DNA of 64,000 nt from Thermoanaerobaculia bacterium (GTDB lineage: Bacteria; Acidobacteriota; Thermoanaerobaculia; UBA5066). Under the pieces are notes generated by a model. That model was given only the letters and a program-made list of their open reading frames with translations, did no database searches and was not told the origin of the DNA. A program made the translations under genes and the position numbers. Positions 13,100-61,057 of this stretch are shown here, one piece after another (within the stretch, counting starts at the first letter, position 1; each line of letters starts with the position of its first letter). Location: the NCBI GenBank assembly GCA_963719225.1, contig CAVRAY010000001.1, positions 2,752,001 to 2,816,000 on the forward strand, written 5' to 3'.

Positions 13100-14112
13100 A
13101 GGGTCACGACGACCTTGAGGACGTCGCCCCCCTGCCGCGCCAGCGCGAAGGCCTCGGCCGCTCGCGCGAGAGGCACGCGGTTCGTCACGACGTCCCGGGC
13201 GCGGACGGCCCCGCGCTCGAGGAGTGTCAGGGCCTCCCGGAAATCCCGCGCGCCGCAAGAGTAGGAAAAGAGCATCGAAAGGTCGCGCAGGTAAGGCAGG
13301 TGCGGCTCGATCGTCCAGGTCTTGCCGGGCTGAATGGGTGAATAGAAGACGACCCGAGCCGCGGGGCCTGCCGCGGCGAGCGCCGCGGCCACGGCGGACT
13401 CCGCAGTCGGCAACACAAAGATGACGTCCGCGCCCGCGCGATCTCCTCTCTTCACCTTCTCAGAAAGGTCCTCTTCGGGCGCCAGCACCTGGTCGAAGCC
13501 GAGTCGAAAGGCATGGGCTCGCCGCGCGGGATCGGGATCGCAGCCGACGAGCGTCCCGGCGCCCGCCGACTTCGCGACGAGACCGAGCAGGATGCCGTTC
13601 GCCCCGAGGCCGATCACCGCGACGGAATCCCCCTCCGCGATCCGCGCCCGGCGCACCGCCTTCACCGCGCACGCGAGCGGCTCGACGAGGGCGCCGTCCT
13701 CGAACGAGAGGGCGTCCGGAAGGCGCAGCGTGTCCGTCGCGACCGCGGCGGCCTCGACGCGCACGTACTCCGCGAGCCCGCCTGGGTGGAGGCGCGTCTT
13801 CTTCCACTCTGGGCACATGACGTCCTCTCCGGCCCGGCAGAAGCGGCACGCGCCGCAGGCCGCGTGGTGGTGAACGACGACGCGGTCGCCGGGCCTGACG
13901 GCGTCGACGCCGGGTCCGGTCGCGGCGACGACGCCCGCCGGCTCGTGACCAAGGACGACCGGCGCCTTCGACGCGACGTACCACCCCGTCGTGTCGCTCC
14001 CGCAGATTCCGACGGCCTTCATGGCGACGGTGATTTCGCCCGGGCCCGGGACCGGCTTCTCCATCTCCACGACGGCGATGTCCTCCAGCGACCGGACGAG
14101 GACAGCCCTCAC
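13096..14112 (-). CDS. Zinc-dependent alcohol/polyol dehydrogenase (MDR family)
   Basis: GICGSD, GHEPAG, CGACRFC...C structural Zn motif, EPLAC, GLGANG; GTG start at 14112. Confidence 0.9.
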   Translation of the reverse strand: MRAVLVRSLEDIAVVEMEKPVPGPGEITVAMKAVGICGSDTTGWYVASKAPVVLGHEPAGVVAATGPGVDAVRPGDRVVVHHHAACGACRFCRAGEDVMCPEWKKTRLHPGGLAEYVRVEAAAVATDTLRLPDALSFEDGALVEPLACAVKAVRRARIAEGDSVAVIGLGANGILLGLVAKSAGAGTLVGCDPDPARRAHAFRLGFDQVLAPEEDLSEKVKRGDRAGADVIFVLPTAESAVAAALAAAGPAARVVFYSPIQPGKTWTIEPHLPYLRDLSMLFSYSCGARDFREALTLLERGAVRARDVVTNRVPLARAAEAFALARQGGDVLKVVVTL

Positions 14113-15221
14113 GGGATCAGGGCGACCTTCATCGCGGCTCTCCTCTCGACGAGGTCGAATGCCTCGCGCCACTCGGCGAGCCCCCGCCTCTCTTCGACGA
14201 GCGAGCCCACGGGGATCGCGCCTTCGCAGAGGAGGGCGAGGGCCGTGTCGACGTCGCGCGGCGTGTAGTGGAAAGCGCCTGTGATCGACACCTCGCGATA
14301 GTGCACCGCGTACGCGTCCACGCTCACGCGCGCCCCCTCCTGCATCCCGGCGAAGAGCACCACCGTGCCTCCATTCTCCGCGAGCGGGGGGAGCGCCGAG
14401 ATCACCTCGGGATCGCCGGTCGTGTCGAGGATCAATGAAAATCTTGCTCCCGAGCCGCGCGTGCCTTCGATGCGCAACGGCATCGGAGGATTTTCTTTGA
14501 AGGTGAATATGGGTGGCGGAGTGCCGGCGCCCGGGTCGCGCGACGAGCCCGCGATGCGCGCCACCTCCGCATTCATCCTTTCGAAGAAAGCGAGTCTCTC
14601 CGGTTTCCTTCCGGCGACGACGACCCGGCGCCCCGCGCCGCTGGTCCTCTCTCTTCCTTCTCCTCTTTCTTTCCCCCTCAAAAGAAAAAACATCATCGCG
14701 GCGATCGGGCCGGTCCCCACGACGAGAACGTCCCCGCCGTCTGCGGCGTTGGTTCTGCTCAGCGCGTGGACGACACTGGCCAGAGGATCCAGCAGCGCGG
14801 CCGCCTCGTCGGAGAGGTCCGGCGGGATTCTCCTGAGGCCGCTCGTCACGATGCGCTCCGGGACGAGCAGAAAATCCGCGAAGGCGCCGAAGAGAGGCCT
14901 CTCGAATGCGGTCGCGCAGAGATTCTCCCGGCCCCCGCGGCAGTCGTCGCAGCTCCCGCAGGGACCCGACACGGCCGAGGTGACGCGCTCGCCGGGCGAA
15001 AAGGGCGTTCCCGGGCCCGTCTCCTCGACGACGCCCGCGAACTCGTGCCCGAGGGTGAGCGGAAACGGAAACTTCGGATGCCCGCGCTTCGCGAGCTTGA
15101 AGTCGGTCGCGCACGTGAGCGCGACGCGAATGCGCACGAGGGCCTCGCCCGCCGCCGGACGGGGCGTCGCGACCTCGCGGAGCGCGAGCCGCTCCGGCCC
15201 CTCCGAGACGAGAGCCCGCAT
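14109..15221 (-). CDS. Zinc-dependent alcohol dehydrogenase (MDR family) with two atypical insertions
   Basis: TCATD, GHEFAG, CGSCDDC...C, GTGPI; ATG at 15221 preceded by TAGGCT. Confidence 0.88.
   Translation of the reverse strand: MRALVSEGPERLALREVATPRPAAGEALVRIRVALTCATDFKLAKRGHPKFPFPLTLGHEFAGVVEETGPGTPFSPGERVTSAVSGPCGSCDDCRGGRENLCATAFERPLFGAFADFLLVPERIVTSGLRRIPPDLSDEAAALLDPLASVVHALSRTNAADGGDVLVVGTGPIAAMMFFLLRGKERGEGRERTSGAGRRVVVAGRKPERLAFFERMNAEVARIAGSSRDPGAGTPPPIFTFKENPPMPLRIEGTRGSGARFSLILDTTGDPEVISALPPLAENGGTVVLFAGMQEGARVSVDAYAVHYREVSITGAFHYTPRDVDTALALLCEGAIPVGSLVEERRGLAEWREAFDLVERRAAMKVALIP
14491..14589. repeat. Convergent pair of the dispersed TTTTCTTNGAAGGTGAA motif
   Basis: TTTTCTTTGAAGGTGAA (14491-14507, +) and TTCATCCTTTCGAAGAAA (14572-14589, -); further minus copies at 14671-14690 and 13451-13466. 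Confidence 0.75.
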
Positions 15222-15295
15222 GGGCCAGAGCCTAGCAGGACGACTGATGCACCCGTGGCCTTGACGGCCCGAATCCGGCCCCTCACGCTCGGCCC

Positions 15296-16201
15296 GTGGC
15301 ACTCCGCCCCACTTTCTATGCAGGTGTTTCGATCGCCGCCGCGATCCTCACCGTCGGACTGAAGCTCTTCGCCTGGAAAGTCACGGGCTCCGTCGGTCTT
15401 CTCTCCGACGCCGCCGAGTCGGGCGTGAACCTCCTCGCGGCTCTCGTGGCGCTCTGGGCGCTCTGGCGCGCGGGCAAGCCGGCCGACGCGACCTACTCCT
15501 TCGGACAGACGAAGGCGGAGTACCTCTCGAGCGGCTTCGAGGGGCTGATGATCATCGCGGCGGCCGTCGCGATCGCGGTCGCTGCGGTCGAGCGCCTCAG
15601 GCACCTCCAGCCGATCGAGAACGTGGGGCTCGGGCTCGGGATCACGGTCGTCGCGTCCGCGATCAACGGGAGCACGGCCGTCCTTCTCCTGCGCGCGGGA
15701 AAGAGCCTGCGCTCCATCACGCTGAGGGCCGACGCCCACCACCTCTTCACGGACGTGTGGACCTCTCTCGGAGTCATCGTCGGCGTCTGCCTCGTGAAGG
15801 TGGCGGGCCTCCTCCTTCTCGATCCCCTCGTCGCGCTCCTCGTGGCCGCGAACATCGTCTGGACGGGCGTCCGGCTCCTCAAGGAGACCGAGCACGGCCT
15901 CCTCGACCGCGCGATCGGGGAGGACGAGCAGGCGGCGATCGCGGGGCTCCTCGAGCGCTTTCACGCGCGGGGCGTCGTCATCCACGGCCTGCGGACCCGC
16001 GCCGCCGGGCACCGCCGATTCGTCCAGATGCACGTCCTCGTGCCCGGCTCGTGGTCGGTCACGCAGGGCCACGATCTCTGCGAGGAGATCGAGCGCGGCG
16101 TCACCTCGGCGCTTCCCGGCAGCACGGTGACGACGCATCTCGAACCGCTCGAGGACCCGGCCTCGTGGGACGACCGCGGCCTCGACCGGCGGCTCAGCTA
16201 G
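15296..16201 (+). CDS. Cation diffusion facilitator family transporter (FieF-like)
   Basis: TGSVGLLSDAAES, LRADAHHLFTD, C-terminal GHDLCEEIE...THLEP. Confidence 0.92.
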   Translation: MALRPTFYAGVSIAAAILTVGLKLFAWKVTGSVGLLSDAAESGVNLLAALVALWALWRAGKPADATYSFGQTKAEYLSSGFEGLMIIAAAVAIAVAAVERLRHLQPIENVGLGLGITVVASAINGSTAVLLLRAGKSLRSITLRADAHHLFTDVWTSLGVIVGVCLVKVAGLLLLDPLVALLVAANIVWTGVRLLKETEHGLLDRAIGEDEQAAIAGLLERFHARGVVIHGLRTRAAGHRRFVQMHVLVPGSWSVTQGHDLCEEIERGVTSALPGSTVTTHLEPLEDPASWDDRGLDRRLS

Positions 16202-16232
16202 GAGCCCGCCTGGGTGATCAGCGGGCTCCTAG
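16198..16232. terminator. 12-bp hairpin between convergent genes (putative bidirectional terminator)
   Basis: CTAGGAGCCCGC-N11-GCGGGCTCCTAG; no U-tract. Confidence 0.5.
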
Positions 16233-16244
16233 CCGTGGGCACGT

Positions 16245-17150
16245 TCAGCGCGGAAGCGAGAGCGAGACGGTATTGTTCTGGTTACTGATGACGTACGCGA
16301 GTGGGTAGAGCCGTGTCGTTGACACGATCGTGGCGCGAGCAGCGGCAGCCTTCAGCGCTGCATTCCGCGCGCGAACATTGGCAAAGGACGTCGAGAAGAT
16401 GTCGTTGATCTGAGAGACCGTGCGCGCGGGCACCGTCACGTGGACGATGAGCGGAGACGCGCCGTCGGCGGAATACACGGATATCGTGACGTCCGCCGCG
16501 ACCGCGTCCGGGTTGATTAGCGAGAGGTTTACGCGCCGCTTCGAGTCCGTGTGGAGCCAGGGGAGGAGGATCGGCGCATCCGCGGGGAAGAAGTTCGAGC
16601 CGTTGTCGATGACGGGCCCTGCTCCTTGGTCGCAGCCGTCTGTATTGATTTCCGTCCCGTCCGGGTAAAAGATACCACCAACGTCATAGTCCCATCCGCC
16701 CGTCCATTCCGAGCAGCGAGCTCTGTCGCCCACCCCCCCATACTCTCCGCGTGGAATGCCCGTCAAAACCGCAGTTTGCACTGACAAGCCGTCCTCGACA
16801 TCCGCCACCGCGGCGCCGAAGGCACTGCGTGAGTCGCGTGTGTTGTCGTGAGCATGGACGCCGGCGTAGATGGCCCATCCGGAGATCGATTGCGTAGCCC
16901 CCGGCGGAATCGAGTACGAAGTCGCAGTCCACCCTGCGGTCCCGACCCAGTCGACGATCCGTAGTGTCTTCGGCGCCGACGAGAAGTTCGTCACACGCAC
17001 CTCGCTCGCCCAGACCGAGCCATTCGCTCCTTCCACGTGCGCGGCGAGTGCGGGCAGCAGTATTTCGGCTCCTTGACCACCTGTCGCCAGGCAGCCCAAC
17101 AGCGCCCCTAGGATTCGACAGACCACGCGAAGGAGCCGATTAGTACGCAT
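16245..17150 (-). CDS. Hypothetical secreted protein
   Basis: Signal peptide followed by LLPALAAHVEGANGSVWASEVRVTN; overlaps the S8 peptidase stop. Confidence 0.75.
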   Translation of the reverse strand: MRTNRLLRVVCRILGALLGCLATGGQGAEILLPALAAHVEGANGSVWASEVRVTNFSSAPKTLRIVDWVGTAGWTATSYSIPPGATQSISGWAIYAGVHAHDNTRDSRSAFGAAVADVEDGLSVQTAVLTGIPRGEYGGVGDRARCSEWTGGWDYDVGGIFYPDGTEINTDGCDQGAGPVIDNGSNFFPADAPILLPWLHTDSKRRVNLSLINPDAVAADVTISVYSADGASPLIVHVTVPARTVSQINDIFSTSFANVRARNAALKAAAARATIVSTTRLYPLAYVISNQNNTVSLSLPR

Positions 17151-19605: not shown

Positions 19606-19843
19606 AAGAACCTCCAGGGTTTCACCGGTCCAACGCAGGTCACTAAGATGAAAAAGGTTACGAACATAAAACACATCAGCTCGGATGCCTGAAGCTGCTC
19701 GGCAGCTTGTGCATCCCTTCACGAGTGACGTCGAGCCTGCGTTTCCTTCGTGATGCACCGGTACTACCCCGAAAGGGGTATGCCTCGAGCCAAAACGCCG
19801 CCTGCGATGCGGAGGCCCCCGTAGGTCCACAGCGCGACGACGG

Positions 19844-19903
19844 CTACTACTGTCGGAAAATTACGAACTCAACTCACTATTACTGTCGGAGAATTGCGAA
19901 CTC
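19844..19903. repeat. 27-bp tandem direct repeat (33-bp period)
   Basis: CTACTACTGTCGGAAAATTACGAACTC versus CTATTACTGTCGGAGAATTGCGAACTC (3 mismatches). Confidence 0.8.
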
Positions 19904-19990
19904 CAGGCTGGCGACTCGAGGCTTCAGCTTAAGCCTCCCCCAGCCAGCCCATCCGCTCAAGACTCGACAAGCCGGAGATCAGGTCGAAGG

Positions 19991-21916: not shown

Positions 21917-21950
21917 GCGTGGCACTCCAGGTCGGATATTCTGCCATTGC

Positions 21951-23426: not shown

Positions 23427-23427
23427 G

Positions 23428-24858: not shown

Positions 24859-24951
24859 TTCCTCAGCACCGTCACCTTTCCGGTCTCGGCCGAGGGCGCT
24901 AGACACGCGGGAAACCGGTCGTTCCGCATACCGCGGAGTTAAGGTGGTGGT

Positions 24952-30897: not shown

Positions 30898-30907
30898 CCC
30901 GGCGATC

Positions 30908-31585
30908 CTAGCAGCCCGATGTAAGGGCGCGCCGCGCGTCGGCGAGGGCCGCGGCGGTTTCGGCCATTCCCCGCTCGAGGTTCTCCTGGGAGCGAAGAGA
31001 AAGAGATTCTTCGAATGCAGAAATGGCGGCTCGGAGGTGCGCCTCTCGCCTGTCGGGCTCTGCCTCGGCCAGCTTTCGGAGGAGATTTCCCAGGGCGTGA
31101 AGCGTCACCCCTCGCGCGACGCGGCGCGAGGCGTCGCGAACCGTGAGGGACTGCTCGTAACAGGAAAGCGACTCCCTGAGGTCGTCCTCCGAGCGCGCGA
31201 GATTCTGGAGGGCGTTGCCGCGGTTGTGAAAAAGGCGTGCCCACGCCTCCAGGTCTTCGCTTCCGTAACCGGCGTCGAGAGATTCTTCGAAGAGAAGGAG
31301 GGAGGAGGAGAGGTTTTCGGCCGGCCCACGCGAGCCGAAGAACACCGCGAGGTTGTGCAGGAACCTCGCCTCTTCCCCCTTCGAAGAAAAAACCACCGTT
31401 CCCCTCATGTCCCACAGGTCGCTCGCGAGGGTCGTCGCCAAGGCACAAGATTCCGTCGTCCCCTCGTCCCTCAGGTGCTCCTGGAGCACGTACCAGTCGC
31501 TCAACGCGGCACGGGCGTCCTCCGCGAACCGCCGGCGGAAGAAGGCGACGAGGTCGCGGGTCGGAGGGAGATCGATGCCCGTCAG
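30908..31585 (-). CDS. Hypothetical TPR-like protein
   Basis: Helical repeats ARFLHNLA, ARLFHNRGNA, TLHALGNL; the frame extends to a CTG overlapping the cysK stop (TTG alternative at 31504). Confidence 0.65.
   Translation of the reverse strand: MTGIDLPPTRDLVAFFRRRFAEDARAALSDWYVLQEHLRDEGTTESCALATTLASDLWDMRGTVVFSSKGEEARFLHNLAVFFGSRGPAENLSSSLLLFEESLDAGYGSEDLEAWARLFHNRGNALQNLARSEDDLRESLSCYEQSLTVRDASRRVARGVTLHALGNLLRKLAEAEPDRREAHLRAAISAFEESLSLRSQENLERGMAETAAALADARRALTSGC
31281..31390. repeat. Convergent pair of the dispersed motif (degenerate)
   Basis: GATTCTTCGAAGAGAA (31281, +) and TTCCCCCTTCGAAGAAAA (31373-31390, -); a further + copy near 31005. Confidence 0.6.
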
Positions 31586-34559: not shown

Positions 34560-34658
34560 TGGCGGAAGCGTGTGGGGGTCGAACCCACCCGCCGCCCCTC
34601 TCGGAGCGGGCACGCTGGTTTTGAAGACCAGGAGGGCCGCCGGGCCCCTTGCGCTTCC
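34560..34658 (-). tRNA. selC: tRNA-Sec (UCA)
   Basis: Reverse complement reads GGAAGCGC...CTGGT-CTTCAAA-ACCAG...GTGGG-TTCGACC-CCCAC-ACGCTTCC-G-CCA; 6-bp D stem, long variable arm, encoded CCA; TAGAAT upstream. Confidence 0.95.
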
Positions 34659-36501: not shown

Positions 36502-37707
36502 GTGCATCCTCTCCGGCCGCCGCTCTCCCTTTTCGTGCGGGCGGCGGCCGCCGCGCTTCTCCTGCCCTTCGCCGTGAGGGGAGCCGAACCCGGAGGGAAG
36601 AACGGCCCGCTCGCGCTCGCCGAAGAGCGATACCAGCGCTATCGGAGGACGCTCGATCCCTCCGACCTCGCCGCTTCCGAGGCCGCGGTGGCGAAAGGCC
36701 TCGCCGCCGCGCCGACCGACTTCGGCCTCCGAAAATTCCGGCTGAGGCTCCTCCTTCCCCACCACCGCTTCGAGGAGCTGGCGCGCGAGGCCGCGGCGCT
36801 GAAGGCGGAACGGCCGGACGACCCGGAGCTGGACGGCGCGCTCGGGGACGCGTTCTTCGAAGTCGGCCGCTATCCGGAGGCCTTCGCCGCCTACGACCGC
36901 TTCGTGGCGGCAAAGCGCTGCACGGCTTCGTTCAGCCGCGCCGCTCTCGCGAAAGACGCCGTGGGCGACCTCCCGGGCGCGCTCGCCGCGCTGGACCTCG
37001 CCGCGAACGCCGCGCTGCCCGCGGACCTCGAGGGCTACGCCTGGTGCCGGGCGCGCGCCGCCCGGATCCTGCTCAAGATGAACCGGTACGAAGACGCGGA
37101 AGGGCGCCTCGTCGAAGCCCTCCTCCGTGTTCCGAATCACGCGCCGGCGCTCGCCGCCGCGGCGGAGATCGCGGCCCGCAAGGGACTCTGGGAGCCGGCC
37201 ACGCGTCTCGCCGAGCGCTCCTTCTCCTTCGTGCCCGAGTTCTCCGTCGCCGCCGCTCTCGTCGACTATCGGCGCGCGATGGGCGACGTCGCCGGCGAGG
37301 AGCGCGCGAAGGCGACCGTGAAGACCCTCGAGGCGCTTCTTCCCGCCGCGGAGAAGAAGGTCCATCGCCTCCTCGCGTTGTATCTGGCGGAGCACGGCGA
37401 CGCCAAGCGGGCGGTCGAGATGACGTCGAGGGAGCTCGAGACCCGCAAGGACATCGGCGGATACGACGCGTATGCGTGGTGCCTGTACCGGGCCGGACGT
37501 GCCCGCGATGCCGTGGAGCCCATGGCGAAAGCCCTCGCGACCGGTACGATCGACCCCGTGCTCGAGTTCCACGCGGGCGCGATCGCCCGAGCAGCGGGCG
37601 ATTGCCAGTCGGCCGTGAAGCACCTCACGCGCGCGCTGGAAATCGACTCGCGCTTCCACGTGCTCCATGCGGAAGAAGCGAGGAGGATGAAGAAAGAGAT
37701 CGAATGA
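36502..37707 (+). CDS. Tetratricopeptide repeat protein (DUF4331-associated)
   Basis: LHHRF-like segment, LGDAFFEVGRY, YDAYAWCLYRAGR, FHAGAI helical repeats. Confidence 0.85.
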   Translation: MHPLRPPLSLFVRAAAAALLLPFAVRGAEPGGKNGPLALAEERYQRYRRTLDPSDLAASEAAVAKGLAAAPTDFGLRKFRLRLLLPHHRFEELAREAAALKAERPDDPELDGALGDAFFEVGRYPEAFAAYDRFVAAKRCTASFSRAALAKDAVGDLPGALAALDLAANAALPADLEGYAWCRARAARILLKMNRYEDAEGRLVEALLRVPNHAPALAAAAEIAARKGLWEPATRLAERSFSFVPEFSVAAALVDYRRAMGDVAGEERAKATVKTLEALLPAAEKKVHRLLALYLAEHGDAKRAVEMTSRELETRKDIGGYDAYAWCLYRAGRARDAVEPMAKALATGTIDPVLEFHAGAIARAAGDCQSAVKHLTRALEIDSRFHVLHAEEARRMKKEIE

Positions 37708-38324
37708 GAAAATCTTCCTCTGTATTTCTTTTCCTCTTTCTTCTCCTCTCTTCAGCAAAATCTTTCTCCCATCCCATGGGGAATTTCTCCGTGAACCGCT
37801 GGACGCGGCTTTCGCCGCGCGCGGGGGGCATCGACGTGACGCACGTCATCGACCTCGCGGAGATCCCGACGCAGAAGGCGCTTTCGGACTCGAACCTGAC
37901 GAGCGCGCCGCGAGGCGAGGCGCTCGCGAAGCTGCGGGACGCGCTCGGCGCGCGCTTTCTGCCGGGCTTGGTTCTCACCGTCGACGGCGCGCGCGTGGCG
38001 CTCGCGGTCGTGAGAAGCGATCTGGAGTTCACCCCGGGAGTCGCGGACCTCCCGACCGCGCGCCTGACGCTGGACCTCGAGGCGAAGGCACTGCTCGAGG
38101 GCGTCAGGGCCGTGGCGTTCTCGGATACGAACTTCGAAGGCCGCGCGGGCTGGAAGGAAGTCGTCGCGGTAGCCGGAAAAGGGGCCGCGATTCTCGCCGC
38201 CGACGTGCCCGCCTCGGACCGCACCCGGGGGCTGACCGAATACCCGACCGACCCGTCGGAGCCGCCGGCGGAGGTCACGCGCGCGGCGTTGCGCGTGAGG
38301 TTCGGCGCAGGGCGGGTCCCCTGA
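37704..38324 (+). CDS. Secreted protein resembling the HP(L/M)GNF N-terminal domain of Ni/Co transporter fusions
   Basis: Signal peptide then HPMGNFSVN...DLAEIPT...GWKEVVA...LTEYP; no membrane transporter domain follows. Confidence 0.6.
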   Translation: MRKSSSVFLFLFLLLSSAKSFSHPMGNFSVNRWTRLSPRAGGIDVTHVIDLAEIPTQKALSDSNLTSAPRGEALAKLRDALGARFLPGLVLTVDGARVALAVVRSDLEFTPGVADLPTARLTLDLEAKALLEGVRAVAFSDTNFEGRAGWKEVVAVAGKGAAILAADVPASDRTRGLTEYPTDPSEPPAEVTRAALRVRFGAGRVP

Positions 38325-45474: not shown

Positions 45475-46428
45475 TCACGGCCACACGCTCTCCTTCTCCT
45501 CGTGCCAGTCGCGGGTCATGTCGAGCCAGAACGCGAGGCCCGCATGCGGTCCGAAAGATGCGTAGACCCGGGCGACGCGTGCGTCCTTCACGGCGCGCCC
45601 CCGAAACCTCAGGGTCGCGACCTTCTTGCGTGACCAGGCGTCGAGGCCCAGCTTGCGGTGTCGGCCGAGGAGACGCCCCAGCGTGTCGGCGGCGTAAGGG
45701 CCAAAGCCCTTTTCCGCCCGAATCTCCTCCTCGACTTCCTCGTCGGGACGTTCCGGATCCTCCCAGCGCGTCAGCTCCAGCTTTCCGGAGGCGACGCGCC
45801 GCGCGAAGGAGGCGAGATACGGCGCCCGGTAGCCCCACTTCGCCGCCGCGAGAGTGCGCGCGGTCATTCCCGCGACGAACGGCGCGTCGGGAAACGCGCC
45901 GCCTCGATCGAAACGCTCGATCAGGTTCGTCACCATGACCTTCGTCAGGCCCCAGGTGCAGTTCGTCGTCGCGAGGACCTTCACGGCGTCCTCGAAGAGC
46001 GTCGGCGCGCGCAGGATCCGCCCCGCCCCGCGCCGCGCGACCCACGCGAAGCGGGGGTCGCCGGCGCAGAGGGAATGGAAGGAAGAAAGATCTGCTTTCA
46101 GATCGAGGACCCTCTCTAGAACGCGACCTACGGCGCGAGAAGAAATGTCCGAAGAGAGATTTTCTTTGAAAGGTGAAGAGGGCACGCCCGCCGCCGCGGC
46201 GCGACAAGATGCGCCGCCGCGCAATTCACCCTTCGAAGAAAGCGCCCGTGCCGTCGCGACCAGTCCGCTCGTGCGTTCCCCGACGATGACGCGCACGGGG
46301 CATTCTCCGACCAAGAAAATCAATCCCAGTGTCTTCTCTTTCTCGTCCCACGCGAACGGGGGCAGGTCGTACCAGCCGTGACTCCGCACGACGAGCCCCA
46401 GGTCCATCGGCGGGAGCCTGAGCATCAC
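45475..46428 (-). CDS. HhH-GPD family DNA glycosylase (AlkA/Ogg-like)
   Basis: SHGWYDLPPF, GRILRAPTLFEDAVKVLATTNCTW, WGYRA, KGFGPYAA HhH motif. Confidence 0.8.
   Translation of the reverse strand: MMLRLPPMDLGLVVRSHGWYDLPPFAWDEKEKTLGLIFLVGECPVRVIVGERTSGLVATARALSSKGELRGGASCRAAAAGVPSSPFKENLSSDISSRAVGRVLERVLDLKADLSSFHSLCAGDPRFAWVARRGAGRILRAPTLFEDAVKVLATTNCTWGLTKVMVTNLIERFDRGGAFPDAPFVAGMTARTLAAAKWGYRAPYLASFARRVASGKLELTRWEDPERPDEEVEEEIRAEKGFGPYAADTLGRLLGRHRKLGLDAWSRKKVATLRFRGRAVKDARVARVYASFGPHAGLAFWLDMTRDWHEEKESVWP
46160..46241. repeat. Convergent pair of the dispersed motif inside the glycosylase gene
   Basis: TTTTCTTTGAAAGGTGAA (46160-46177) and TTCACCCTTCGAAGAAA (46225-46241). Confidence 0.8.
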
Positions 46429-49467: not shown

Positions 49468-49481
49468 TACCCCGCACGGGC

Positions 49482-50423: not shown

Positions 50424-50430
50424 GGGCCCG

Positions 50431-50440
50431 AGTGTAGGCT
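50431..50440. promoter_or_regulatory. Overlapping back-to-back -10 boxes for divergent leaderless genes
   Basis: AGTGTAGGCT reads TACACT on the minus strand (7 nt before TTG 50423) and TAGGCT on the plus strand (6 nt before GTG 50447). Confidence 0.6.
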
Positions 50441-50446
50441 AGCGGC

Positions 50447-51313: not shown

Positions 51314-51330
51314 CTCGGAAGGAAAACGAA

Positions 51331-53331
51331 CTACTTGAGCAGATGGTCCTCGACGAACTTCAGCGTCGCGAGGAACTGGAAGTCCTGGTTGTTCTTCTTG
51401 GAGAAGCCGTGGCCCTCGTTCTTCGCGAGGAGGTACCACACGGGCCCGCCGTTCTTCTTGATCGCCGCGACCATCTGCTCGGCCTCGGTGTACGGCACTC
51501 GGGGGTCGTTGCGCCCCTGGACGATGAACATCGGCTTCGTGATCTTGCCGGCGCTCGTGAGGGGTGACATCGTCAGGAGCTTCTCGCGCATCTTCGGATC
51601 GCGCTCGTCGCCGTACTCGACCCGTCGCAGGTCGCGCCGATAGCTTTCCGTGTGCTCGAGGAACGTCACCCAGTTCGAGATCCCGACGACGTCGAGGGCG
51701 CACCGGAAACGGTCGTTGTAGTGCGTCATCGAGGCGAGCGTCATGTAGCCGCCGTACGACCCCCCCATCACCATGACCCGGCTCTTGTCCAGCGAAGGCT
51801 GCGACGCGATCCAGTCGAGGAGCGCGCCGATGTCCTTCACGGAATCCTCGCGCTTCTCCGCGTTGTCGAGCGTGAGGAACGTCTTGCCGAAGCCGGACGA
51901 GCCGCGCACGTTCGGGTAGATCAGCGCGACGCCGAGCTCGTTCAGGTAGAAGTTGTTCCGGCCGAGAAAGCCGGGCTGGTACTGCCCCTCCGGGCCCCCG
52001 TGGATGCTGACGATCACCGGGCGCGGTCCCGTGAAGGTCGCCGGCGGGCGATAGAGGAATCCCGTGATCGTCCGTCCGTCGAAGCTCTTCCACGAGATCT
52101 TCTCGGGCTCGGAGAGAGCCGCGGCGTCGAGCCCGCCCAGCTCGCTTTCCGTCCAGCGCTCGATCTTCCCGGTCGCACCGGCCGTCACGTCGATCGAATA
52201 CACGTCGGAAGCGGAGCGCGCGGAGGCGAGCGAGAAGGCGAGGTCCTTCCCGTTCGCGTGAAAGCGCACCGCGCCGATCGTCCCGAGCGGGAGCTTCGGG
52301 AGCGCGATCCCCTTTCTCGTGGCCGTGTCGAGGACGTGCAGCGTCTCGACGCCGCCCTCGTTCACGACGAACGCCAGCTTGCCGCCGTCCTCGGAGAGAC
52401 TGAGTGAAGACACGTCCCAGTCGATGCCGGGCGCGAGCACCGTGATCTTCTTCGACGCGAGATCGAGCGACACGAGGCGGTGGAACTCGGCGCCCGAGTC
52501 CGTCGTCGTGTAAACCGATTTGCCGTCCTTGGCGAAGATGGCGCGGCCCCAGGCGACCTTCTCCTTCGATTCAGGCGTCGCGAGGCTCTTCGCGCCCGTT
52601 GCGGCGTCCACGAGCCAGTACCGGCTCTCGTTCGCGGAGACGTACTCGCCCACGAGGAGAGTCTTGTCGTCGGGCGACCAGTCGGAGACTCCCCATCCGC
52701 CACCCGAGACCTCGAGGACCTTCCGCTCGGTCTTCGCGTCGGCCGGGTCGACGACCCAGACGTCGTTGTCCTTCCCGTTCCGGCGCGTCGACTGGTATGC
52801 GAGCCACTTTCCGGAATGCGAGAAGTCGCCGCCCGTGTTGCGGGACTTGCCGTCCGTGAACATCGTGACCTTGCCCGTCTTCTCGTCCCGCCAGAAGAGC
52901 TGGTACCACTCGCCGCCGCCGACGTCCTTGTTGAAGACGAAGCCGTCGCCCGACAGGGGGCGGAACCGCGCGCCGCCCGTGCGCTCGGGATAAAAGGTGA
53001 GCTGCGTGCGCGCTCCGCCGGGGAACTTCACGCGGTGGACCTGCGCGACGTCCGCGAAGCGCGTCCCGATGAGCATCTCGCGGCGCACGGGATGCCAGGC
53101 TTCGAACACAGCGCCCCGCGACTCGGTCCAGGGCGCGACGCGCTCGGCGAGCGCTTTCGGGATGGGCGGCAAGCCGTCGGCGACGAGGTTCTCGTTCGGG
53201 GGGACGAGGGCTTCGTCGCCCATCGCCCGAAGGCAAGGCACGAAGAGCACCAGGAAAAGGGAAATTCTGCTTAGAAAGAGAAAGACGGGGGCCGTTGCTC
53301 TCCCGCTGCTCATACTTTCGTTCAAACGCAT
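51331..53331 (-). CDS. S9 family peptidase (prolyl oligopeptidase-like, beta-propeller plus hydrolase)
   Basis: IHGGPEGQ, PNVRGSSGFG, GGSYGG, QGRNDPRVP, EGHGF; start uncertain (53331 or 53313). Confidence 0.93.
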   Translation of the reverse strand: MRLNESMSSGRATAPVFLFLSRISLFLVLFVPCLRAMGDEALVPPNENLVADGLPPIPKALAERVAPWTESRGAVFEAWHPVRREMLIGTRFADVAQVHRVKFPGGARTQLTFYPERTGGARFRPLSGDGFVFNKDVGGGEWYQLFWRDEKTGKVTMFTDGKSRNTGGDFSHSGKWLAYQSTRRNGKDNDVWVVDPADAKTERKVLEVSGGGWGVSDWSPDDKTLLVGEYVSANESRYWLVDAATGAKSLATPESKEKVAWGRAIFAKDGKSVYTTTDSGAEFHRLVSLDLASKKITVLAPGIDWDVSSLSLSEDGGKLAFVVNEGGVETLHVLDTATRKGIALPKLPLGTIGAVRFHANGKDLAFSLASARSASDVYSIDVTAGATGKIERWTESELGGLDAAALSEPEKISWKSFDGRTITGFLYRPPATFTGPRPVIVSIHGGPEGQYQPGFLGRNNFYLNELGVALIYPNVRGSSGFGKTFLTLDNAEKREDSVKDIGALLDWIASQPSLDKSRVMVMGGSYGGYMTLASMTHYNDRFRCALDVVGISNWVTFLEHTESYRRDLRRVEYGDERDPKMREKLLTMSPLTSAGKITKPMFIVQGRNDPRVPYTEAEQMVAAIKKNGGPVWYLLAKNEGHGFSKKNNQDFQFLATLKFVEDHLLK

Positions 53332-53358
53332 TGCTCATACCTCTTTTCGAAGAAAATC
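53265..53358. repeat. Convergent pair of the dispersed motif (degenerate)
   Basis: TTCTGCTTAGAAAGAGAA (53265-53282) and TACCTCTTTTCGAAGAAAATC (53338-53358). Confidence 0.6.
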
Positions 53359-53372
53359 CCGGTTCTTCTCTT

Positions 53373-55463: not shown

Positions 55464-56029
55464 CCCAGCATTCCCTTCTTCAGATCCTCGGACGGCGGCT
55501 TCGGCCCGAGCCAGAGCAGGAAGACGACGTCGGCGAAGTCCTTGCCCTCGAACGTCCCGAGCTCCTTGTCGCCGGCGAAGAAGGTCGTGCCTTTCCCGGG
55601 CACGTAGACGAACGACAGCGTCGCGCCTTCCTTCACGTCCGGCACGAGTGCGAGCATCTTGTCGAGTGCCGCTTTGTGGGCCGCTGCCTTCTCCTTCGCG
55701 TTGGCCTCGAATCCCTCGGAGAAAGCCTCGGTGAGCTGTGATTTCTTGAGGTCGCGGAGGAAGTGCATGCGCACCGCCTTCGGAGCATCGGCGGCGACGA
55801 TTCCCGCGGCGTCCTTCGAAGGGGTTTCGAGGTAGAGGCCGCCCACGTAGACCTTGAAGATGGCCTTCTTGCGCAGGCCGAGCCCGTTCAGCTTGAGCGT
55901 CTTGTCGCCCGCCGAAAGCGTGTCCGGCAGGGTGACGCCCGCCATGTCGCGGGCGAGAGCGGGGCGGTCGGCCAGGAAGAGGCCCGAGAGAGCGAAGACC
56001 CCGAGTGAGAGAGACGAAATGCGTTTCAT
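55460..56029 (-). CDS. Chalcone isomerase-like periplasmic protein
   Basis: Signal peptide, LKLNGLGLRKK, KVYVGGLYL, WLGPKPPSEDLKKGMLG; GGAGG RBS. Confidence 0.85.
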   Translation of the reverse strand: MKRISSLSLGVFALSGLFLADRPALARDMAGVTLPDTLSAGDKTLKLNGLGLRKKAIFKVYVGGLYLETPSKDAAGIVAADAPKAVRMHFLRDLKKSQLTEAFSEGFEANAKEKAAAHKAALDKMLALVPDVKEGATLSFVYVPGKGTTFFAGDKELGTFEGKDFADVVFLLWLGPKPPSEDLKKGMLG

Positions 56030-56114
56030 CGAATCCTCCTGCGAGGGATGGATTCTACGGGCACGGGAGGCCATTTCGAAGGCCGGGACACGATTCCTCG
56101 ATGAGAATGCGGCC

Positions 56115-57029
56115 GTGGGTGCGCTGCTCCTTCTCGGAATCTCCGCGCTCGCGGCGTCGGGCGCGTTCAGCACGGGCACGTCGACCGGGCGGATCAGGAT
56201 CGTGGATGCCGACGAGGCCGCGGGCTTTCCGGAAGTCGTCGTTCTCGACGCGCGCTCCGCGAAGGATTTCGCGGCCGGTCACGTCCCGGGAGCGCAGCGC
56301 GTCGACTGGCGCGAGTGGACGCTCGAGAAGCCGGGCACGCTGAACGCCTTCTTCGGAAATCCCGCCCGCTGGGGCCGGGTCCCGAACGCGGACGCGGTTC
56401 TTCAGAAGCGTCTCTCGGACCTCGGGCTCTCGAACGCGCGCCCCGTTCTCGTCGTCGGGGCGCCCGGGGGCTGGGGCGAGGAAGGCCGCGTCGCCTGGAA
56501 TCTGCTCTATTGGGGGGCGGAAGAAGTCCGGCTCCTCGACGGCGGCTTCCCCGCGTGGCGAAAGAATCCCGCGAGGCCGGTCGAGGTCGGCGCGGCGCGC
56601 CGCGTCGCGCCCGGAAATTTCGTCCTCGACGTCCGCCCCCAGCGACGGATCGAGGCGAAGAAGCTGAAGGCGGCTGCGGACGCGAAGGCCACGGCGCTTC
56701 TCGACGCGCGCACCCCGGCGGAGTTCGCGGGGAAGAGGATGGCCGGGCAGAAGCGCGGCGGCCACATCCCGGGCGCACGTCTCGTCCCCGCGAAGAGCCT
56801 GTATGCCGCCGACGGCCGGTACGTCGATGCCGAAGAGCTGAAGCGCCTCGCGGGAATCGGCCCGGACTCGACGAGCCCCCGAGCAAGACCGATCACGTAT
56901 TGCACCGGCGGCGTGCGCTCGGCCCTCCTCGCCGTCCTTCTCGAAGCGCGCCTCGGCGTCGTCTCGGCAAATTACGACGGATCGCTCTGGGAGTGGTCGG
57001 CCGATCCTTCGCTGCCGCTCGTCAAGTAG
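56115..57029 (+). CDS. Tandem rhodanese-domain sulfurtransferase (possibly exported)
   Basis: LDARS...GHVPGA, LDGGFPAW, GHIPGA, YCTGGVRS, YDGSLWEW. Confidence 0.9.
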   Translation: MGALLLLGISALAASGAFSTGTSTGRIRIVDADEAAGFPEVVVLDARSAKDFAAGHVPGAQRVDWREWTLEKPGTLNAFFGNPARWGRVPNADAVLQKRLSDLGLSNARPVLVVGAPGGWGEEGRVAWNLLYWGAEEVRLLDGGFPAWRKNPARPVEVGAARRVAPGNFVLDVRPQRRIEAKKLKAAADAKATALLDARTPAEFAGKRMAGQKRGGHIPGARLVPAKSLYAADGRYVDAEELKRLAGIGPDSTSPRARPITYCTGGVRSALLAVLLEARLGVVSANYDGSLWEWSADPSLPLVK

Positions 57030-57112
57030 AAGAGAACAAGAGATTTCTGCTTCCCTCTCGGATCGTTTCGGCGGTGTGCGACGTGCTACAGCGAAGCGAA
57101 GGCACGGTTGTT

Positions 57113-57204
57113 TTTTCTTAGAAGGTGAAAGAATCACGGGCGCCGCCGAAGCCAAGGAGGAGGCCCGATGCGCAACCCCGGGTCCCATTCACTTTCTAAG
57201 AAAA
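57113..57204. repeat. Convergent pair of the dispersed motif (best conserved)
   Basis: TTTTCTTAGAAGGTGAA (57113-57129) and TTCACTTTCTAAGAAAA (57188-57204): 16/17 inverted match. Confidence 0.88.
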
Positions 57205-57929
57205 GAACATCGAAAAGTCCTGCTAAGAGTCGCCCGGCTATAAGTCGGGCTCCCCGGCCTGCTCCGAAAGCAAAGAAACCTTCGTCTTCTCCCGCCCCGA
57301 CTCTCACCGTCTCCTTCGTCTCCATCGAGGTGATGCACAACGGCTGGCCCGGTGAAGGCGTTCGCGCGACGGATCTTTCGCTCGTCCTTCAGCTCGAGGA
57401 TCCCGATCCCGCCGTAGCCGGCGAAAAAGCCGCGCTCGCCTCCGCGCACCTTCCGTTCTCGGCATCCTCGGGGCAGACGGTCACCGCGGCGCAGCTGCCG
57501 CCCGATCAGAATGGAAACCCGCTCTTCGGCGGAGCCGTGAAGCTTTCGAGCCACGTGAACCTCCACGCGCGCCTCTTCGTGGAGCGCACGAACGCGGTCG
57601 GCCCGATCCTGGGAGCAGCCCTGAATACCGTGATCGGGCAGTTCCTGGGCCGCATTCCGCTCCTCGCGACGCCGGCGCGGGAAGTCCTCCACGTCCAGAT
57701 CGGAAAAGTGATCGCGACCGAGCTCGCGCGCGCGACGGCGATCGTGCCCGTGGACGCGACGTTCCGCGGGTCCCATCCCGTCACGCTCGCACTCGTGGCT
57801 CCGGTGACGATTCCCGGCATTTACGCTCCGCCGGGGAGCCCCGAGGGCTACAAGAAGGGCGTCATCTCGACGGAGGGAGACCTTACGGCCCTCCTCCACC
57901 TCACGCTCGACCTGGAGCTCGCGGGCTGA
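57168..57929 (+). CDS. Hypothetical protein
   Basis: AAGGAGGAGG RBS; basic low-complexity N-terminus followed by a globular region. Confidence 0.65.
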   Translation: MRNPGSHSLSKKRTSKSPAKSRPAISRAPRPAPKAKKPSSSPAPTLTVSFVSIEVMHNGWPGEGVRATDLSLVLQLEDPDPAVAGEKAALASAHLPFSASSGQTVTAAQLPPDQNGNPLFGGAVKLSSHVNLHARLFVERTNAVGPILGAALNTVIGQFLGRIPLLATPAREVLHVQIGKVIATELARATAIVPVDATFRGSHPVTLALVAPVTIPGIYAPPGSPEGYKKGVISTEGDLTALLHLTLDLELAG

Positions 57930-57965
57930 GGCGGCTCGCACGGCGCCTTCCAGCCCTGCATCTCG

Positions 57966-58514
57966 ATGCGCAGCTTTCTCGCGGGCGCGGTCCTCGCCAC
58001 TTCCGGGGACATCACGCGGCAAAACGTCGACGCCATCGTGAACGCCGCGAACAGCTCCCTCCTGGGCGGGGGCGGCGTGGACGGGGCCATCCATCGCGCG
58101 GGCGGGCCGGCCATCCTATCGGCCTGCCAGGAGCTGAGGCGCACGGTGTGGCCTTCCGGGCTTCCCACCGGAGAGACGGTCATGACGCCCGGCGGCGACC
58201 TTCCCGCCAGATTCGTGATTCACACTGTTGGACCGGTCTATGGATCACATTCGGGAAACGAGGCGGCCCTTCTCGCTTCCTGCTATCGGAAGTCGCTCTT
58301 TCTCGCGGAGGAGCACGGTCTCCATACCATTGCGTTTCCGGCGATCTCGACAGGCATCTACGGCTTTCCGCGCCCGGAAGCCGCCGAGGTCGCGTCCTCG
58401 GCGATCGCCTCGACACTCGCGGAGCTCCCGCGGATTCGCGAGGTCCGGCTCGTTTTCTTTTCGCCCCGGGATCTCGAGGTGTTCCTTGAGAACGAGAAGT
58501 TCGGCGCGGCCTGA
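57966..58514 (+). CDS. Macro domain protein (O-acetyl-ADP-ribose deacetylase, YmdB-like)
   Basis: GDIT, DAIVNAAN, GGGGVDGAIH, HTVGP, FPAISTGIYGFP. Confidence 0.95.
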   Translation: MRSFLAGAVLATSGDITRQNVDAIVNAANSSLLGGGGVDGAIHRAGGPAILSACQELRRTVWPSGLPTGETVMTPGGDLPARFVIHTVGPVYGSHSGNEAALLASCYRKSLFLAEEHGLHTIAFPAISTGIYGFPRPEAAEVASSAIASTLAELPRIREVRLVFFSPRDLEVFLENEKFGAA

Positions 58515-58556
58515 CGTCTCGCTCGATCCCCTCACGTCGCTTGATATCGTCGGGCC

Positions 58557-59024
58557 GTGGGGACGAGCGTTCCAGCCGGGTTGGAGATCCGGCCCGCAGC
58601 TCGGGACGACGCGAACGTGATCTCGGAGCTTCTGACGGAGCTCGGTCATCCCCTCGAGCCGGTCCTCGCCCGAACGCAATTGGAACGGATTCAGGCCCTC
58701 GCCCCGAACCACGCCGTCTTCGTCGCGGTTGTGGATGGAACGGTCGTCGGGCTCGTCTCCGCATTCTCGACGCCGGTTCTCCACCGGGCTCTGCCCGTGG
58801 GACGCGTCAGCGTTCTCGTCGTGGCCCGAGCGCACACGGGAAAGGGAGTCGGCTCCGTGCTTCTTCGCCATGCCGAGCAATTCCTGGCCGCGCTCGGCTG
58901 CTGCCGCATCGAGGTGACGAGCGCGTCGCACCGCGAGGCGGCGCATCGCTTCTACCGCGAACGGGGATACGCGCAGCAGGGTGTCAAGTTCACGCGCGAC
59001 ATCCCGGAAATGACGACGCCATGA
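58557..59024 (+). CDS. GNAT family N-acetyltransferase
   Basis: IRPAARDD, LVV...GKGVGSVLL, AHRFYRERGY. Confidence 0.88.
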   Translation: MGTSVPAGLEIRPAARDDANVISELLTELGHPLEPVLARTQLERIQALAPNHAVFVAVVDGTVVGLVSAFSTPVLHRALPVGRVSVLVVARAHTGKGVGSVLLRHAEQFLAALGCCRIEVTSASHREAAHRFYRERGYAQQGVKFTRDIPEMTTP

Positions 59025-59626
59025 CGCAGACGAATCGCGGCAATTTCCTCGTCGCGGCCTACGAGACCGAGCGGCTGAAGACGTTGAGCGTGTGGTCTTG
59101 CTTCGGCGACTCGGATCTCGGCTTCCAGCCGGCGCCGAGGTCTCGCACGCCGCTCGAGCACATGGTTCACCAGTGCGTGTCGGAAGACACCTGGATGAAG
59201 AACATGCTCGGCATCGAGGTAACGCTTCCCGCGCTGCCCGCGCGCGAGGACCGCCTCGGCTTCCTACACCACTACGCCGAGGCGTCCGGGAAACGGCGCG
59301 AGATTCTCGCGACGAAAACCCCAGACTGGTGGGACACGGAGACGAAGTTCTTCGACGTGGAGGAGACGCGCTCGTGGGTGTTCCTCCGGCGGCTGACGCA
59401 CTCGTCGCACCATCGCGGCCAGCTCACCGTCTACTTGCGTCTCCTGGGCCGCCCGCTCTACTCGACGTACGGGCCGACGGCCGACACGGGCGGGCTTTTT
59501 CTCAACAAGGCCCCGACGCTCTACCGTTACCGCTCGCTCGAGCACCTGCTCGCCGCCGAAGACGCCGGCGGCGAGTGGCCGGAGCTGCCCGGCCCGGGTG
59601 AAAAACCGCCCACGGAGAGGCCATGA
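59021..59626 (+). CDS. DinB family protein
   Basis: HMVHQCVSED, THSSHHRGQLTVYLR, STYGPTAD. Confidence 0.88.
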   Translation: MTQTNRGNFLVAAYETERLKTLSVWSCFGDSDLGFQPAPRSRTPLEHMVHQCVSEDTWMKNMLGIEVTLPALPAREDRLGFLHHYAEASGKRREILATKTPDWWDTETKFFDVEETRSWVFLRRLTHSSHHRGQLTVYLRLLGRPLYSTYGPTADTGGLFLNKAPTLYRYRSLEHLLAAEDAGGEWPELPGPGEKPPTERP

Positions 59627-60096
59627 AACTTCGAGCCGCGGTCCTGTCCCTCGCGATCGCCGCAAACGCCGCGGGATCGCCCGCAGACCCGCCCGCGCCG
59701 CAGTTCTTTCCCTCTCCCGATCCCGCGCTCAAAGCCCTTCCTTTCTCGGAGGCCGTGCGGACCGGCGACCTGCTCTTCGTCTCCGGTCAGATCGGGAACG
59801 CGCCCGGCACGCTCGACCTCGTTCCGGGTGGGATCGACGCGGAGGGCCGGCGGGCTCTCGAGAACATGCGGGCGATCCTCGAACGGCACGGCTCCTCGCT
59901 GGACCGTGTCGTGAAGTGCACGGTATTTCTGGCCGACATGCGCGAGTGGCCGGCCTTCAACGAGGTGTACCGGCGCTTCTTCACGCACGGCCTTCCCGCG
60001 CGCAGCGCTCTCGGCGCGAGCGGCCTCGCCCGGGGCGCGCGCGTGGAGATCGAGTGCGTGGCTTCGGTCGGCCCCCGCAGGCCTAAGGCGCGCTGA
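59623..60096 (+). CDS. RidA/YjgF family protein with signal-peptide-like N-terminus
   Basis: PFSEAV, FVSGQIG, VVKCTVFL, FNEVY, PARS, VEIEC. Confidence 0.92.
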   Translation: MKLRAAVLSLAIAANAAGSPADPPAPQFFPSPDPALKALPFSEAVRTGDLLFVSGQIGNAPGTLDLVPGGIDAEGRRALENMRAILERHGSSLDRVVKCTVFLADMREWPAFNEVYRRFFTHGLPARSALGASGLARGARVEIECVASVGPRRPKAR

Positions 60097-60121
60097 AGGC
60101 GAGGCTTTCCTAGGCGTAAAA

Positions 60122-60158
60122 ACTTACGCTTGACTTACGTCTCAGGCGGACCTACGTT
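60122..60158 (+). promoter_or_regulatory. imuA promoter with overlapping direct-repeat operator
   Basis: ACTTACGCTTGACTTACG (60122-60139) over TTGACT-N17-TACGTT, 6 nt before the GTG. Confidence 0.75.
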
Positions 60159-60164
60159 GGCCGG

Positions 60165-61019
60165 GTGTCGGCGCTGCTTCTTTCCGCCCCGCTGCCCCTT
60201 CCTGACTTGCCTCGAGAGATCGCCGCCCGGCTGACGACCGCCTCCGGACTTTCGCGCGAACGGTTCGTACCGGGGTTCCTGCCCACACGCATCGAGGGGC
60301 TGGACCGATTGTTGGGAGGCGGGCTGCCCCGCGGCGCGCTCGTGGAGATTTCGGGGCGCGCAACCTCGGGCCGTTTTTCGGTGGCGCTCTCTGCCCTCGC
60401 CGCAACCACGCAGACGGGCGAAGTCGCCGCGCTCGTTGATCCCGGCGACCACTTCGATCCGCAGGGGGCGGCTGCCGCCGGCGCCGAGCTTTCACGGATG
60501 CTTTGGCTGCGCCCGCGTGGGCTAAAGCCGGCGCTCGCCGCGGCCGAGACCATCCTCGCGACGGGCTTCGCGCTCGTCGTCCTCGACCTCGGGCTCTCAC
60601 GCATCTCCAGGCGGCGTTTCGACGACGCCGTCTGGCTGCGCCTCGCGCGGCGCGCCCGCTTCCACGACGCGGCGCTCCTCGTCCTGGCGCCTTACCGCGT
60701 CACGGGCACCGCGGCGCACGTCGTGCTCGCGGCCGATGCGGCTCACGCGGGCTGGGACCGCGCGAGCCTGGACCGGCGGGCGCAGAGCGTGTCGCTCCTC
60801 GACGGCCTGTCCTCGCGCCTCGTGCTCGAGAAAACGCGGGACTCGAAGATGAATATGAATATGAAAGACAAGACGAGCTTGCTGAATCTCTCCCTGCTGG
60901 ATGCGGTTCAGGCAGGTAAGGAAGAGAGAAAAGAAAGAAAGATTTGCTTAGAAAGGGAAGAAAGAGAAAGAGAGAACGCCGTTTCGTTTTCCAGGCATTC
61001 ATCCGCATTCGAGCGTTGA
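60165..61019 (+). CDS. imuA: ImuA-like (RecA/RadA-fold) mutasome accessory protein
   Basis: LDRLLGGGLPRGALVEISGRATSGR (degenerate Walker A), LVDPGDHFDP, ALVVLD; upstream of imuB. Confidence 0.8.
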   Translation: MSALLLSAPLPLPDLPREIAARLTTASGLSRERFVPGFLPTRIEGLDRLLGGGLPRGALVEISGRATSGRFSVALSALAATTQTGEVAALVDPGDHFDPQGAAAAGAELSRMLWLRPRGLKPALAAAETILATGFALVVLDLGLSRISRRRFDDAVWLRLARRARFHDAALLVLAPYRVTGTAAHVVLAADAAHAGWDRASLDRRAQSVSLLDGLSSRLVLEKTRDSKMNMNMKDKTSLLNLSLLDAVQAGKEERKERKICLEREERERENAVSFSRHSSAFER

Positions 61020-61057
61020 GGGGTCTGGGAGCCAGGGATATTCACCTTCTAAGAAAA
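60943..61057. repeat. Convergent pair of the dispersed motif at the imuA 3' end
   Basis: TTTGCTTAGAAAGGGAA (60943-60959) and TTCACCTTCTAAGAAAA (61041-61057, exact reverse complement of 57113-57129). Confidence 0.82.

Follow-up and report, generated by a model that had tools for sequence, protein, structure and literature searches.

A 64-kb stretch of contig 1 of a Thermoanaerobaculia genome, hereafter the window, carries between and within its genes a short, one-sided sequence motif that occurs six times as a pair of facing copies (Table 1). The source genome (G000) measures 4.75 Mb in two contigs (C1 and C2) with 68% GC. The six pairs had been reported in an initial annotation of the window and were found where it placed them, the forward-strand copy preceding the reverse-strand copy in each; the copies at 57113-57129 (+) and 61041-61057 (-) are likewise identical when each is read on its own strand. 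The consensus proposed there proved too tight (exact in four of the twelve copies, with one to three mismatches in another four and more than three in four), but all twelve copies score between 17.5 and 32.4 bits on a weight matrix trained on the genome. Six of the purine-to-pyrimidine patches described in the window hold such a pair; the patch at 37.7 kb keeps the compositional switch without any site of at least 8 bits and is possibly a decayed pair.

Table 1. Motif copies and related features of the window, in window coordinates.
Feature	Position	Strand	Score (bits)	Pair, spacing and surroundings
Site	14489..14508	+	31.8	Left arm of pair 1, spacing 87 bp; within a loop inserted in a zinc-binding dehydrogenase gene (14109-15221, -)
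Site	14573..14592	-	17.5	Right arm of pair 1; built by amino-acid substitutions in an aligned part of the same dehydrogenase
Site	31279..31298	+	20.6	Left arm of pair 2, spacing 97 bp
Site	31373..31392	-	26.4	Right arm of pair 2
Site	46158..46177	+	29.0	Left arm of pair 3, spacing 70 bp; intergenic
Site	46225..46244	-	19.5	Right arm of pair 3
Site	53264..53283	+	24.4	Left arm of pair 4, spacing 78 bp; flanked by genes for a GreA-domain protein and an S9 peptidase
Site	53339..53358	-	23.8	Right arm of pair 4
Site	57111..57130	+	31.2	Left arm of pair 5, spacing 79 bp; after a rhodanese gene
Site	57187..57206	-	27.4	Right arm of pair 5
Site	60941..60960	+	28.0	Left arm of pair 6, spacing 102 bp; long purine tract
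Site	61040..61059	-	32.4	Right arm of pair 6
Unpaired site	13450..13469	-	19.4	Inside a second dehydrogenase gene
Outer unpaired site	31003..31022	+	20.2	Directed at pair 2, 276 bp to its left
Purine-then-pyrimidine patch	37670..37775	.		Without any site of at least 8 bits

The motif comprises a purine tract followed by WTTTCTTHGAARGKGAA, in which a TTC-N3-GAA dyad with unequal flanks and a GGTGAA-like tail can be recognised. Its high-information part covers about 20 bp and the whole one-sided signal about 30 bases, amounting to about 25 bits. A weight-matrix scan of G000 returned 802 sites of at least 17 bits; a fourth-order Markov sequence of the same length gave about 10. Because the matrix had G000 itself as its training genome, its score there is in part circular, which does not hold for the pairing bias or for exact-pattern counts in relatives, made with a reversed-pattern control. 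In coding DNA (gene calls were made within the analysis and the coding counts rest on those predictions), 538 sites and 166 pairs were observed against 32.6 sites and 1.1 pairs in eight codon-preserving shuffles. The recurrence noticed in the window thus exceeds both shuffled and Markov expectation, and a chance origin of the sites is excluded. The outer tract follows the strand of the site: 94 of 126 purine runs of at least 22 nt adjoin a same-strand site and 3 of 126 an opposite-strand site. The motif had been called a candidate undescribed signal, and no description of it was found in the literature searched, subscription papers and supplements lying outside the coverage.

The inward orientation noted in the window holds throughout the genome. 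Couples of sites of at least 18 bits lying within 400 bp are convergent in 288 cases, tandem in 76 and divergent in 12, and an opposite-strand partner (at least 8 bits, at 25-300 bp) lies ahead of 629 of the 801 sites and behind 28 of them. By cluster type, 204 are +-, 35 are ++-, 33 are +-- and 7 are -+, and 226 sites stand single. Measured from centre to centre, the arms are rarely closer than about 68 bp, which forms a floor; spacings of 75-79 bp are the commonest, a weaker second mode falls at 135-140 bp, and the distribution ends in a long tail. No convincing helical period was detected either in 197 pairs (Rayleigh Z of 2.2 at 10.5 bp and 3.9 at 10.0 bp) or in the pooled set (Z of 1.7 and 3.0, respectively), a spacing peak at 93 bp that stems largely from paralogous kinases being excluded from the test. 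The two arms of a pair resemble each other no more than shuffled partners do (12.80 matches vs 12.83 ± 0.11 in 231 pairs), and covariation was absent from 109 pairs of relatives as well. A hairpin, a cruciform or terminal repeats were consequently ruled out, since the arms of a pair do not covary. The interiors of the pairs share no common motif; they are GC-rich (0.70-0.71) and GpC-rich, also between genes, with a GC content of 0.70 compared with 0.65 in site-free intergenic DNA. No skew of the DNA was detected around the pairs farther than about 150 bp away.

The signal acts at the level of DNA. Genes contain 551 of the 801 sites (69%), with 278 in sense and 273 in antisense orientation and all frames in use, and 151 of 250 pairs lie wholly within a single gene; the motif is therefore not restricted to the promoters of one regulon. 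Since counts also exceed the shuffles and orientation is strongly convergent, none of the three outcomes named in the initial annotation as refuting its reading has occurred. Sites between genes are not biased towards gene starts, and coding sites show no sense or start-codon bias. The motif partially resembles the 3' end of 16S rRNA, but an extended Shine-Dalgarno sequence was rejected, as despite this partial match neither a sense nor a start bias exists. Codon usage bears the mark of the sites, 74 of the 270 TTA codons falling inside them. The sites have been written into conserved proteins, even those of essential genes, mainly by substitutions: when 54 of them were compared with motif-free orthologues, 29 fell in ungapped alignment, 11 at a gap edge, 8 in an insertion and 6 outside the alignment, with a local protein identity of 0.275 at the sites vs 0.57 for the genes overall. 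Six of these 54 sites lie in a single gene, which we take to encode isoleucyl-tRNA synthetase. The dehydrogenase that holds pair 1 illustrates both routes; its substitution-built site in an aligned stretch is present in 23 of 25 loci of the genus, and the partner in the inserted loop, where several relatives have 84-bp duplications, in 18 of 25. No site was found in five loci from other families (one of these is from the unpublished genome G025, and the statement holds without it).

Sites are retained among relatives more faithfully than their surroundings. In the relative G003, all but 5 of 51 sites could be aligned, and 40 of these 46 are kept, with an identity of 0.86-1.0 in the site cores compared with about 0.72 in the flanks. 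In G019, where 9 of 61 pairs could not be mapped, the 52 mappable pairs are kept as pairs in 31 cases, kept as one site in 13 and lost in 8, and the spacing of the kept pairs varies freely between the two genomes. A 13-base pattern occurs in 79-405 copies in all 28 other genomes of the genus and in 1-47 copies in all 8 genomes of a second genus, compared with 0-2 copies in the other 26 genomes of the family; the two carrier genera cluster together in a quick one-protein tree. These pattern counts restrict the motif to a pair of sister genera within Thermoanaerobaculia. Paralogues of an expanded serine/threonine kinase family (e.g., C1:1361483, 1739141 and 2295924) carry the same 93-bp pair in both carrier genera, and this pair is therefore older than their split.

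Beyond the family, 297 genomes outside the genus in a phylum sample of 301 had 0-7 matches, which is the control level. An exact-pair scan of the species in GTDB gave at least 115 stretches; among the 80 titles listed, 74 belong to Thermoanaerobaculia or Acidobacteriota, and six of the stretches are AT-rich single hits elsewhere. Three pair patterns matched viral contigs 1, 3 and 0 times, with a GC content of 36-44% throughout, which was taken as chance; plasmids gave weak short matches only, and a search of sequencing runs listed no RNA run with the sequence and none that reached half of the query words. No substitute motif of like architecture was detected in 600 kb near dif in a small sample of five motif-free genomes. 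One exact facing pair, 94 bp apart, was found in a genome of another family (G236:C33:12206-12311) and is possibly a transferred gene.

The sites are also unevenly distributed along the chromosome. Contig 2 carries dnaA and the skew minimum, and contig 1 the sole dif-like site, near the skew maximum; the skew switches cleanly once at each of dnaA and dif. When the two contigs are joined into a circle, an assumption on which the gradient depends, successive 400-kb steps away from the origin have 9.8, 8.5, 12.2, 21.0, 23.8 and 26.5 sites per 100 kb. The medians of 100-kb bins are 7 and 24 and the terminus side is 2-3 times denser, the origin half holding 244 of the 801 sites, whereas GC content at third codon positions, rare codons and unrelated purine runs stay flat from origin to terminus. 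The gradient is also seen in DNA shared with relatives (7.6, 1.5 and 8.9 vs 25.6, 46.5 and 29.1), and G019 has 47 sites in the 400 kb around dnaA compared with 146 in a 400-kb portion matching the terminus half of G000. The sites have no replication-strand polarity (237 leading vs 221 lagging), and the unpaired ones have no polarity directed at dif (129 towards, 148 away). dif itself is flanked by two pairs, a four-site arrangement seen in 2 of 115 comparable intergenic regions, and a site of at least 11 bits lies near dif in 18 of 21 loci of the genus, 3 of 7 of the sister genus and none of 24 others.

Every known family of signals tested differs from the motif in a defining feature. The binding sites of Noc (NBS), SlmA (SBS), MatP (matS) and ParB (parS) are comparable in being sequence-specific, scattered independently of genes and biased between origin and terminus; matS sites, in particular, are scattered with a bias along this axis. 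Unlike all of these, the motif has about ten times as many copies, is one-sided and obligately head-to-head, and is enriched over a 2.2-Mb terminus half. parS and NBS are 16-bp palindromes with a TTTC-N4-GAAA core, whereas the core here is TTC-N3-GAA with unequal flanks; parS sites cluster at the origin and NBS are excluded from the terminus, whereas the motif is terminus-enriched; and the confinement of matS to a macrodomain contrasts with the many sites in the origin half. Chi and KOPS (FtsK orienting polar sequences) are also many, short, clade-specific and found within genes, but they are polarised with replication and the motif is not. Operators of a single regulon would be restricted to promoter regions, and the sites are not.

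The available portion of one study gives about 70 palindromic NBS, none of them in the terminus (PMC4331003). Chromosomal hairpins (CHINs), described in the accessible part of their report as two arms bound by bridging H-NS/StpA around an unbound centre (PMC12460168), have a form that a facing pair could adopt; they lie, however, on AT-rich foreign genes without a strict motif, whereas here a 25-bit motif occurs in core genes and borders a GC-rich interior. Repetitive extragenic palindromes (REPs) and the bacterial interspersed mosaic elements (BIMEs) and REPINs built from them share the hundreds of copies and the frequent inverted doublets, and BIMEs bind IHF and gyrase, as far as the portion consulted describes them (PMC3184786). 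REPs, on the other hand, are GC-rich extragenic stem-loops tied to the transposase RAYT, whereas the sites are AT-rich and mostly intragenic and their arms are not self-complementary.

The sites of G000 are thus oriented, independent elements of the DNA itself, freely spaced above a steric-looking floor, maintained at a cost to proteins and biased towards the terminus. We give slightly better than even chances to the explanation that the pairs are binding or loading sites, in fixed orientation, of a sequence-specific protein that organises the chromosome. A dimer would read the TTC-N3-GAA dyad and take its direction from the flanks; two complexes that face each other, with about 35 bp covered inward by each, would meet by short sliding or flexible bridging and might then fold or pin the GC-rich interior. 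The outcome could be compaction or segregation of the late-replicating terminus half, and selection for facing pairs would have been strong enough to alter codons and amino acids. Paired protein-binding sites with a chromosome-level role had been suggested from the window, and the lack of arm covariation, the sense/antisense symmetry and the origin-to-terminus gradient speak for this part of the suggestion; as a whole, the interpretation offered there is partly supported. A bolder version, in which the pairs are a head-to-head folding code of two sister genera, read by a dif-linked ParB clamp or another protein, organising the terminus half and worth the rewriting of hundreds of proteins including tRNA synthetases, is tentative, and the balance is somewhat against it.

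The search for a protein that reads the sites led to a second parA-parB operon that adjoins dif (G000:C1:2037575-2039524); dif lies beside this operon in 52 of 54 loci across the order, and nothing on terminus-linked ParAB was found in the literature searched. parS and NBS are bound by cognate CTPases of the ParB family, and a separate canonical parS-like site lies near the origin. The dif-linked ParB (C1:2037865-2038766, -) was found in 29 of 30 carriers of the motif and 25 of 30 non-carriers. Specificity in the ParB family depends on residues 173, 179, 184 and 201, according to the available part of one study (PMC7383237). Alanine at the equivalent of position 179 together with arginine or lysine at 184 is found in 29 of 29 motif-bearing and none of 25 motif-free genomes, and Arg201, a position assigned by eye, distinguishes the high-density genus from the low-density sister genus. 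Five alignment columns set the clade apart from the rest of the family, two of them in the recognition helix. In the stretch near dif covered by the genome G070, the only carrier-limited genes are an ArsR-methyltransferase-like gene and a large enzyme-like gene. From these residues, the dif-linked ParB-family protein may be put forward as a candidate reader, although an unlikely one, because the residue split is a single event recognised post hoc and because the motif has a 3-base centre; parS and NBS have one of four bases.

Several observations weigh against an organising protein, or against this candidate for it. The lack of helical phasing does so insofar as rigid loops are meant, and the looping envisaged in the initial annotation finds no support in a rigid form, no 10.5-bp phasing having been found. 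Mirror symmetry of nested clusters is at most suggestive (4 of 11 vs 1.7 expected, p of about 0.06), and the gradient comes from two syntenic, non-independent genomes. No site lies near dif in 3 of the 21 loci of the genus and 4 of the 7 of the sister genus, and the 200 kb around dif have 27.5 sites per 100 kb in G000, 8.0 in G003 and 2.0 in G050; a density near dif that ranges more than tenfold among carriers would be expected from an accumulating process more than from a fixed need. HU/IHF (3-4 copies), ParB (2), SMC and HTH_17 proteins occur in motif-bearing and motif-free genomes alike when compared at family level, and the histone fold PF00808 was found in none of five genomes searched. 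The ParB residue split represents one evolutionary event and was noticed post hoc, and the dif-linked ParB is order-wide with a recognition helix that is otherwise near-identical in motif-free genomes.

Such accumulation is central to the rival that survives best, which is nevertheless unlikely: a drive resembling that of uptake sequences, in which an import, export or packaging machine favours fragments bearing pairs and the sites accumulate wherever a protein can accept them, without serving the resident chromosome. The uptake signal sequences (USS) of Pasteurellaceae and the DNA uptake sequences (DUS) of Neisseriaceae are, as portrayed in the portion of the source available, also non-palindromic, clade-specific, mostly genic, present in both orientations and in hundreds to about a thousand copies, and 65% of the USS of H. 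influenzae lie in open reading frames at poorly conserved amino acids (PMC2817400). The motif resembles them in copy number, in its share within genes, in the poorly conserved residues that it occupies and in its limitation to a clade; carriers differ more than tenfold in density, a ComEC gene is present, and DNA not shared with G003 has 1.2 sites per 100 kb compared with 20.6 in shared DNA. The distribution of USS and DUS, however, is more even than a random one, and where they form pairs these are chiefly intergenic terminators (PMC2817400, same portion), whereas most pairs here are intragenic, stand at least about 70 bp apart with non-covarying arms and an outer purine tract, and rise in density from 9.8 to 26.5 sites per 100 kb with chromosomal position. 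ComEC was found in five of five genomes searched, including both motif-free ones, and a finer measure in G019 was reversed (30 sites per 100 kb in shared vs 49 in unshared DNA), probably due to alignments breaking at the patches. By analogy, the motif would work most like NBS and matS in its position bias and most like uptake sequences in its remodelling of proteins.

A local mutational or repair process is improbable. Under it, the motif, its partner and the purine tracts would all be the product of a nicking, modifying or error-prone enzyme acting at a seed site, with no selection for a function. Such a process could account for the slippage-like tracts beside the sites, namely the long purine runs mentioned above and 35 of 92 poly-serine runs, and for lineage-specific gains and losses in the form of 36-50 bp indels and 84-bp tandem duplications. 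Against it, the partners are not copies of each other, the cores are better conserved than the flanks, over half of the compared sites (29/54) stand in ungapped protein alignments and composition has no origin-terminus gradient. Still less probable is that the sites are loading points for two head-to-head motors, such as a back-up helicase or a translocating nuclease or repair complex, that meet between them. Opposed sites, a minimum distance and the lack of phasing match two-site loading in outline; type III restriction enzymes provide one parallel and opposed sites of the origin recognition complex (ORC) another, as set out in the accessible part of PMC12440816. The interiors, however, are GC-rich and not unwinding elements, and the skew switches once each at dnaA and dif, with no skew beyond about 150 bp from the pairs. 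The remnant of a MITE (miniature inverted-repeat transposable element), of a REP or REPIN or of another mobile palindrome, or else an RNA signal (a terminator, a ribosome-binding site or an Hfq or Rho site), is largely refuted and very improbable: inverted arms with a variable interior, the partial 16S match and the 8 of 54 sites in insertions would suit it, but the arms do not covary, no sense or start-codon bias exists, where the top-ranked site pairs have almost identical flanks these are paralogous genes or a single insertion sequence (IS), a Y1 transposase was found in neither G000 nor G019, and the window has no Rfam match except tRNA-Sec. The domesticated palindromic element proposed as an alternative in the initial annotation is likewise not supported, as the sites arise mostly via in-place substitution and G000 yielded no Y1 transposase; PF01797 was found in G050, G070 and G071.

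A signal of 25 bits built about 800 times in oriented pairs, at a cost of core-enzyme residues, points, whatever its reader, to a force on bacterial genomes that none of the compared systems explains. If the sites organise the chromosome, they would be a bacterial pairing code that depends on orientation, with a terminus bias opposite to those of Noc and SlmA; if they result from an uptake-type drive, both the clade and the two-site form would be new. These explanations can be tested with synthetic DNA and heterologous expression, given that the clade has a sharp boundary, that carriers span a range of site densities and that a candidate protein can be named.

Other features of the genome were observed along the way. 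The most replication-polarised hexamer of G000 is GGGGAG (1886 leading, 1207 lagging), a candidate KOPS-like word. The ribosomal-protein cluster (C1:2684000-2730000) and the single 16S gene (C1:903987-905542) lie about 1.4-1.5 Mb from the origin, which is unusually far. A 15-bp palindrome (CC..A-N5-T..GG) lies about 29 bp past the centre of dif, as well as at C1:1590215-1590313 and 679324-679371, and follows dif in 40 loci of the family; it is likely the SOS box of the family, because three copies precede a gene that, from its sequence, we presume to be LexA-like. Five copies of what we take to be the end of an IS110-like element, each with one site, lie beside presumed attC-like sequences (C1:1112473-1112942, 2198494-2209791), and a gene at C1:1115037 is presumably an integron-integrase-like gene. 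The region C1:57600-61400 is T/G-rich low-complexity DNA with long poly-T and poly-A runs and is probably an assembly artefact. Within the window, the tRNA-Sec gene occupies positions 34560-34658 on the reverse strand.

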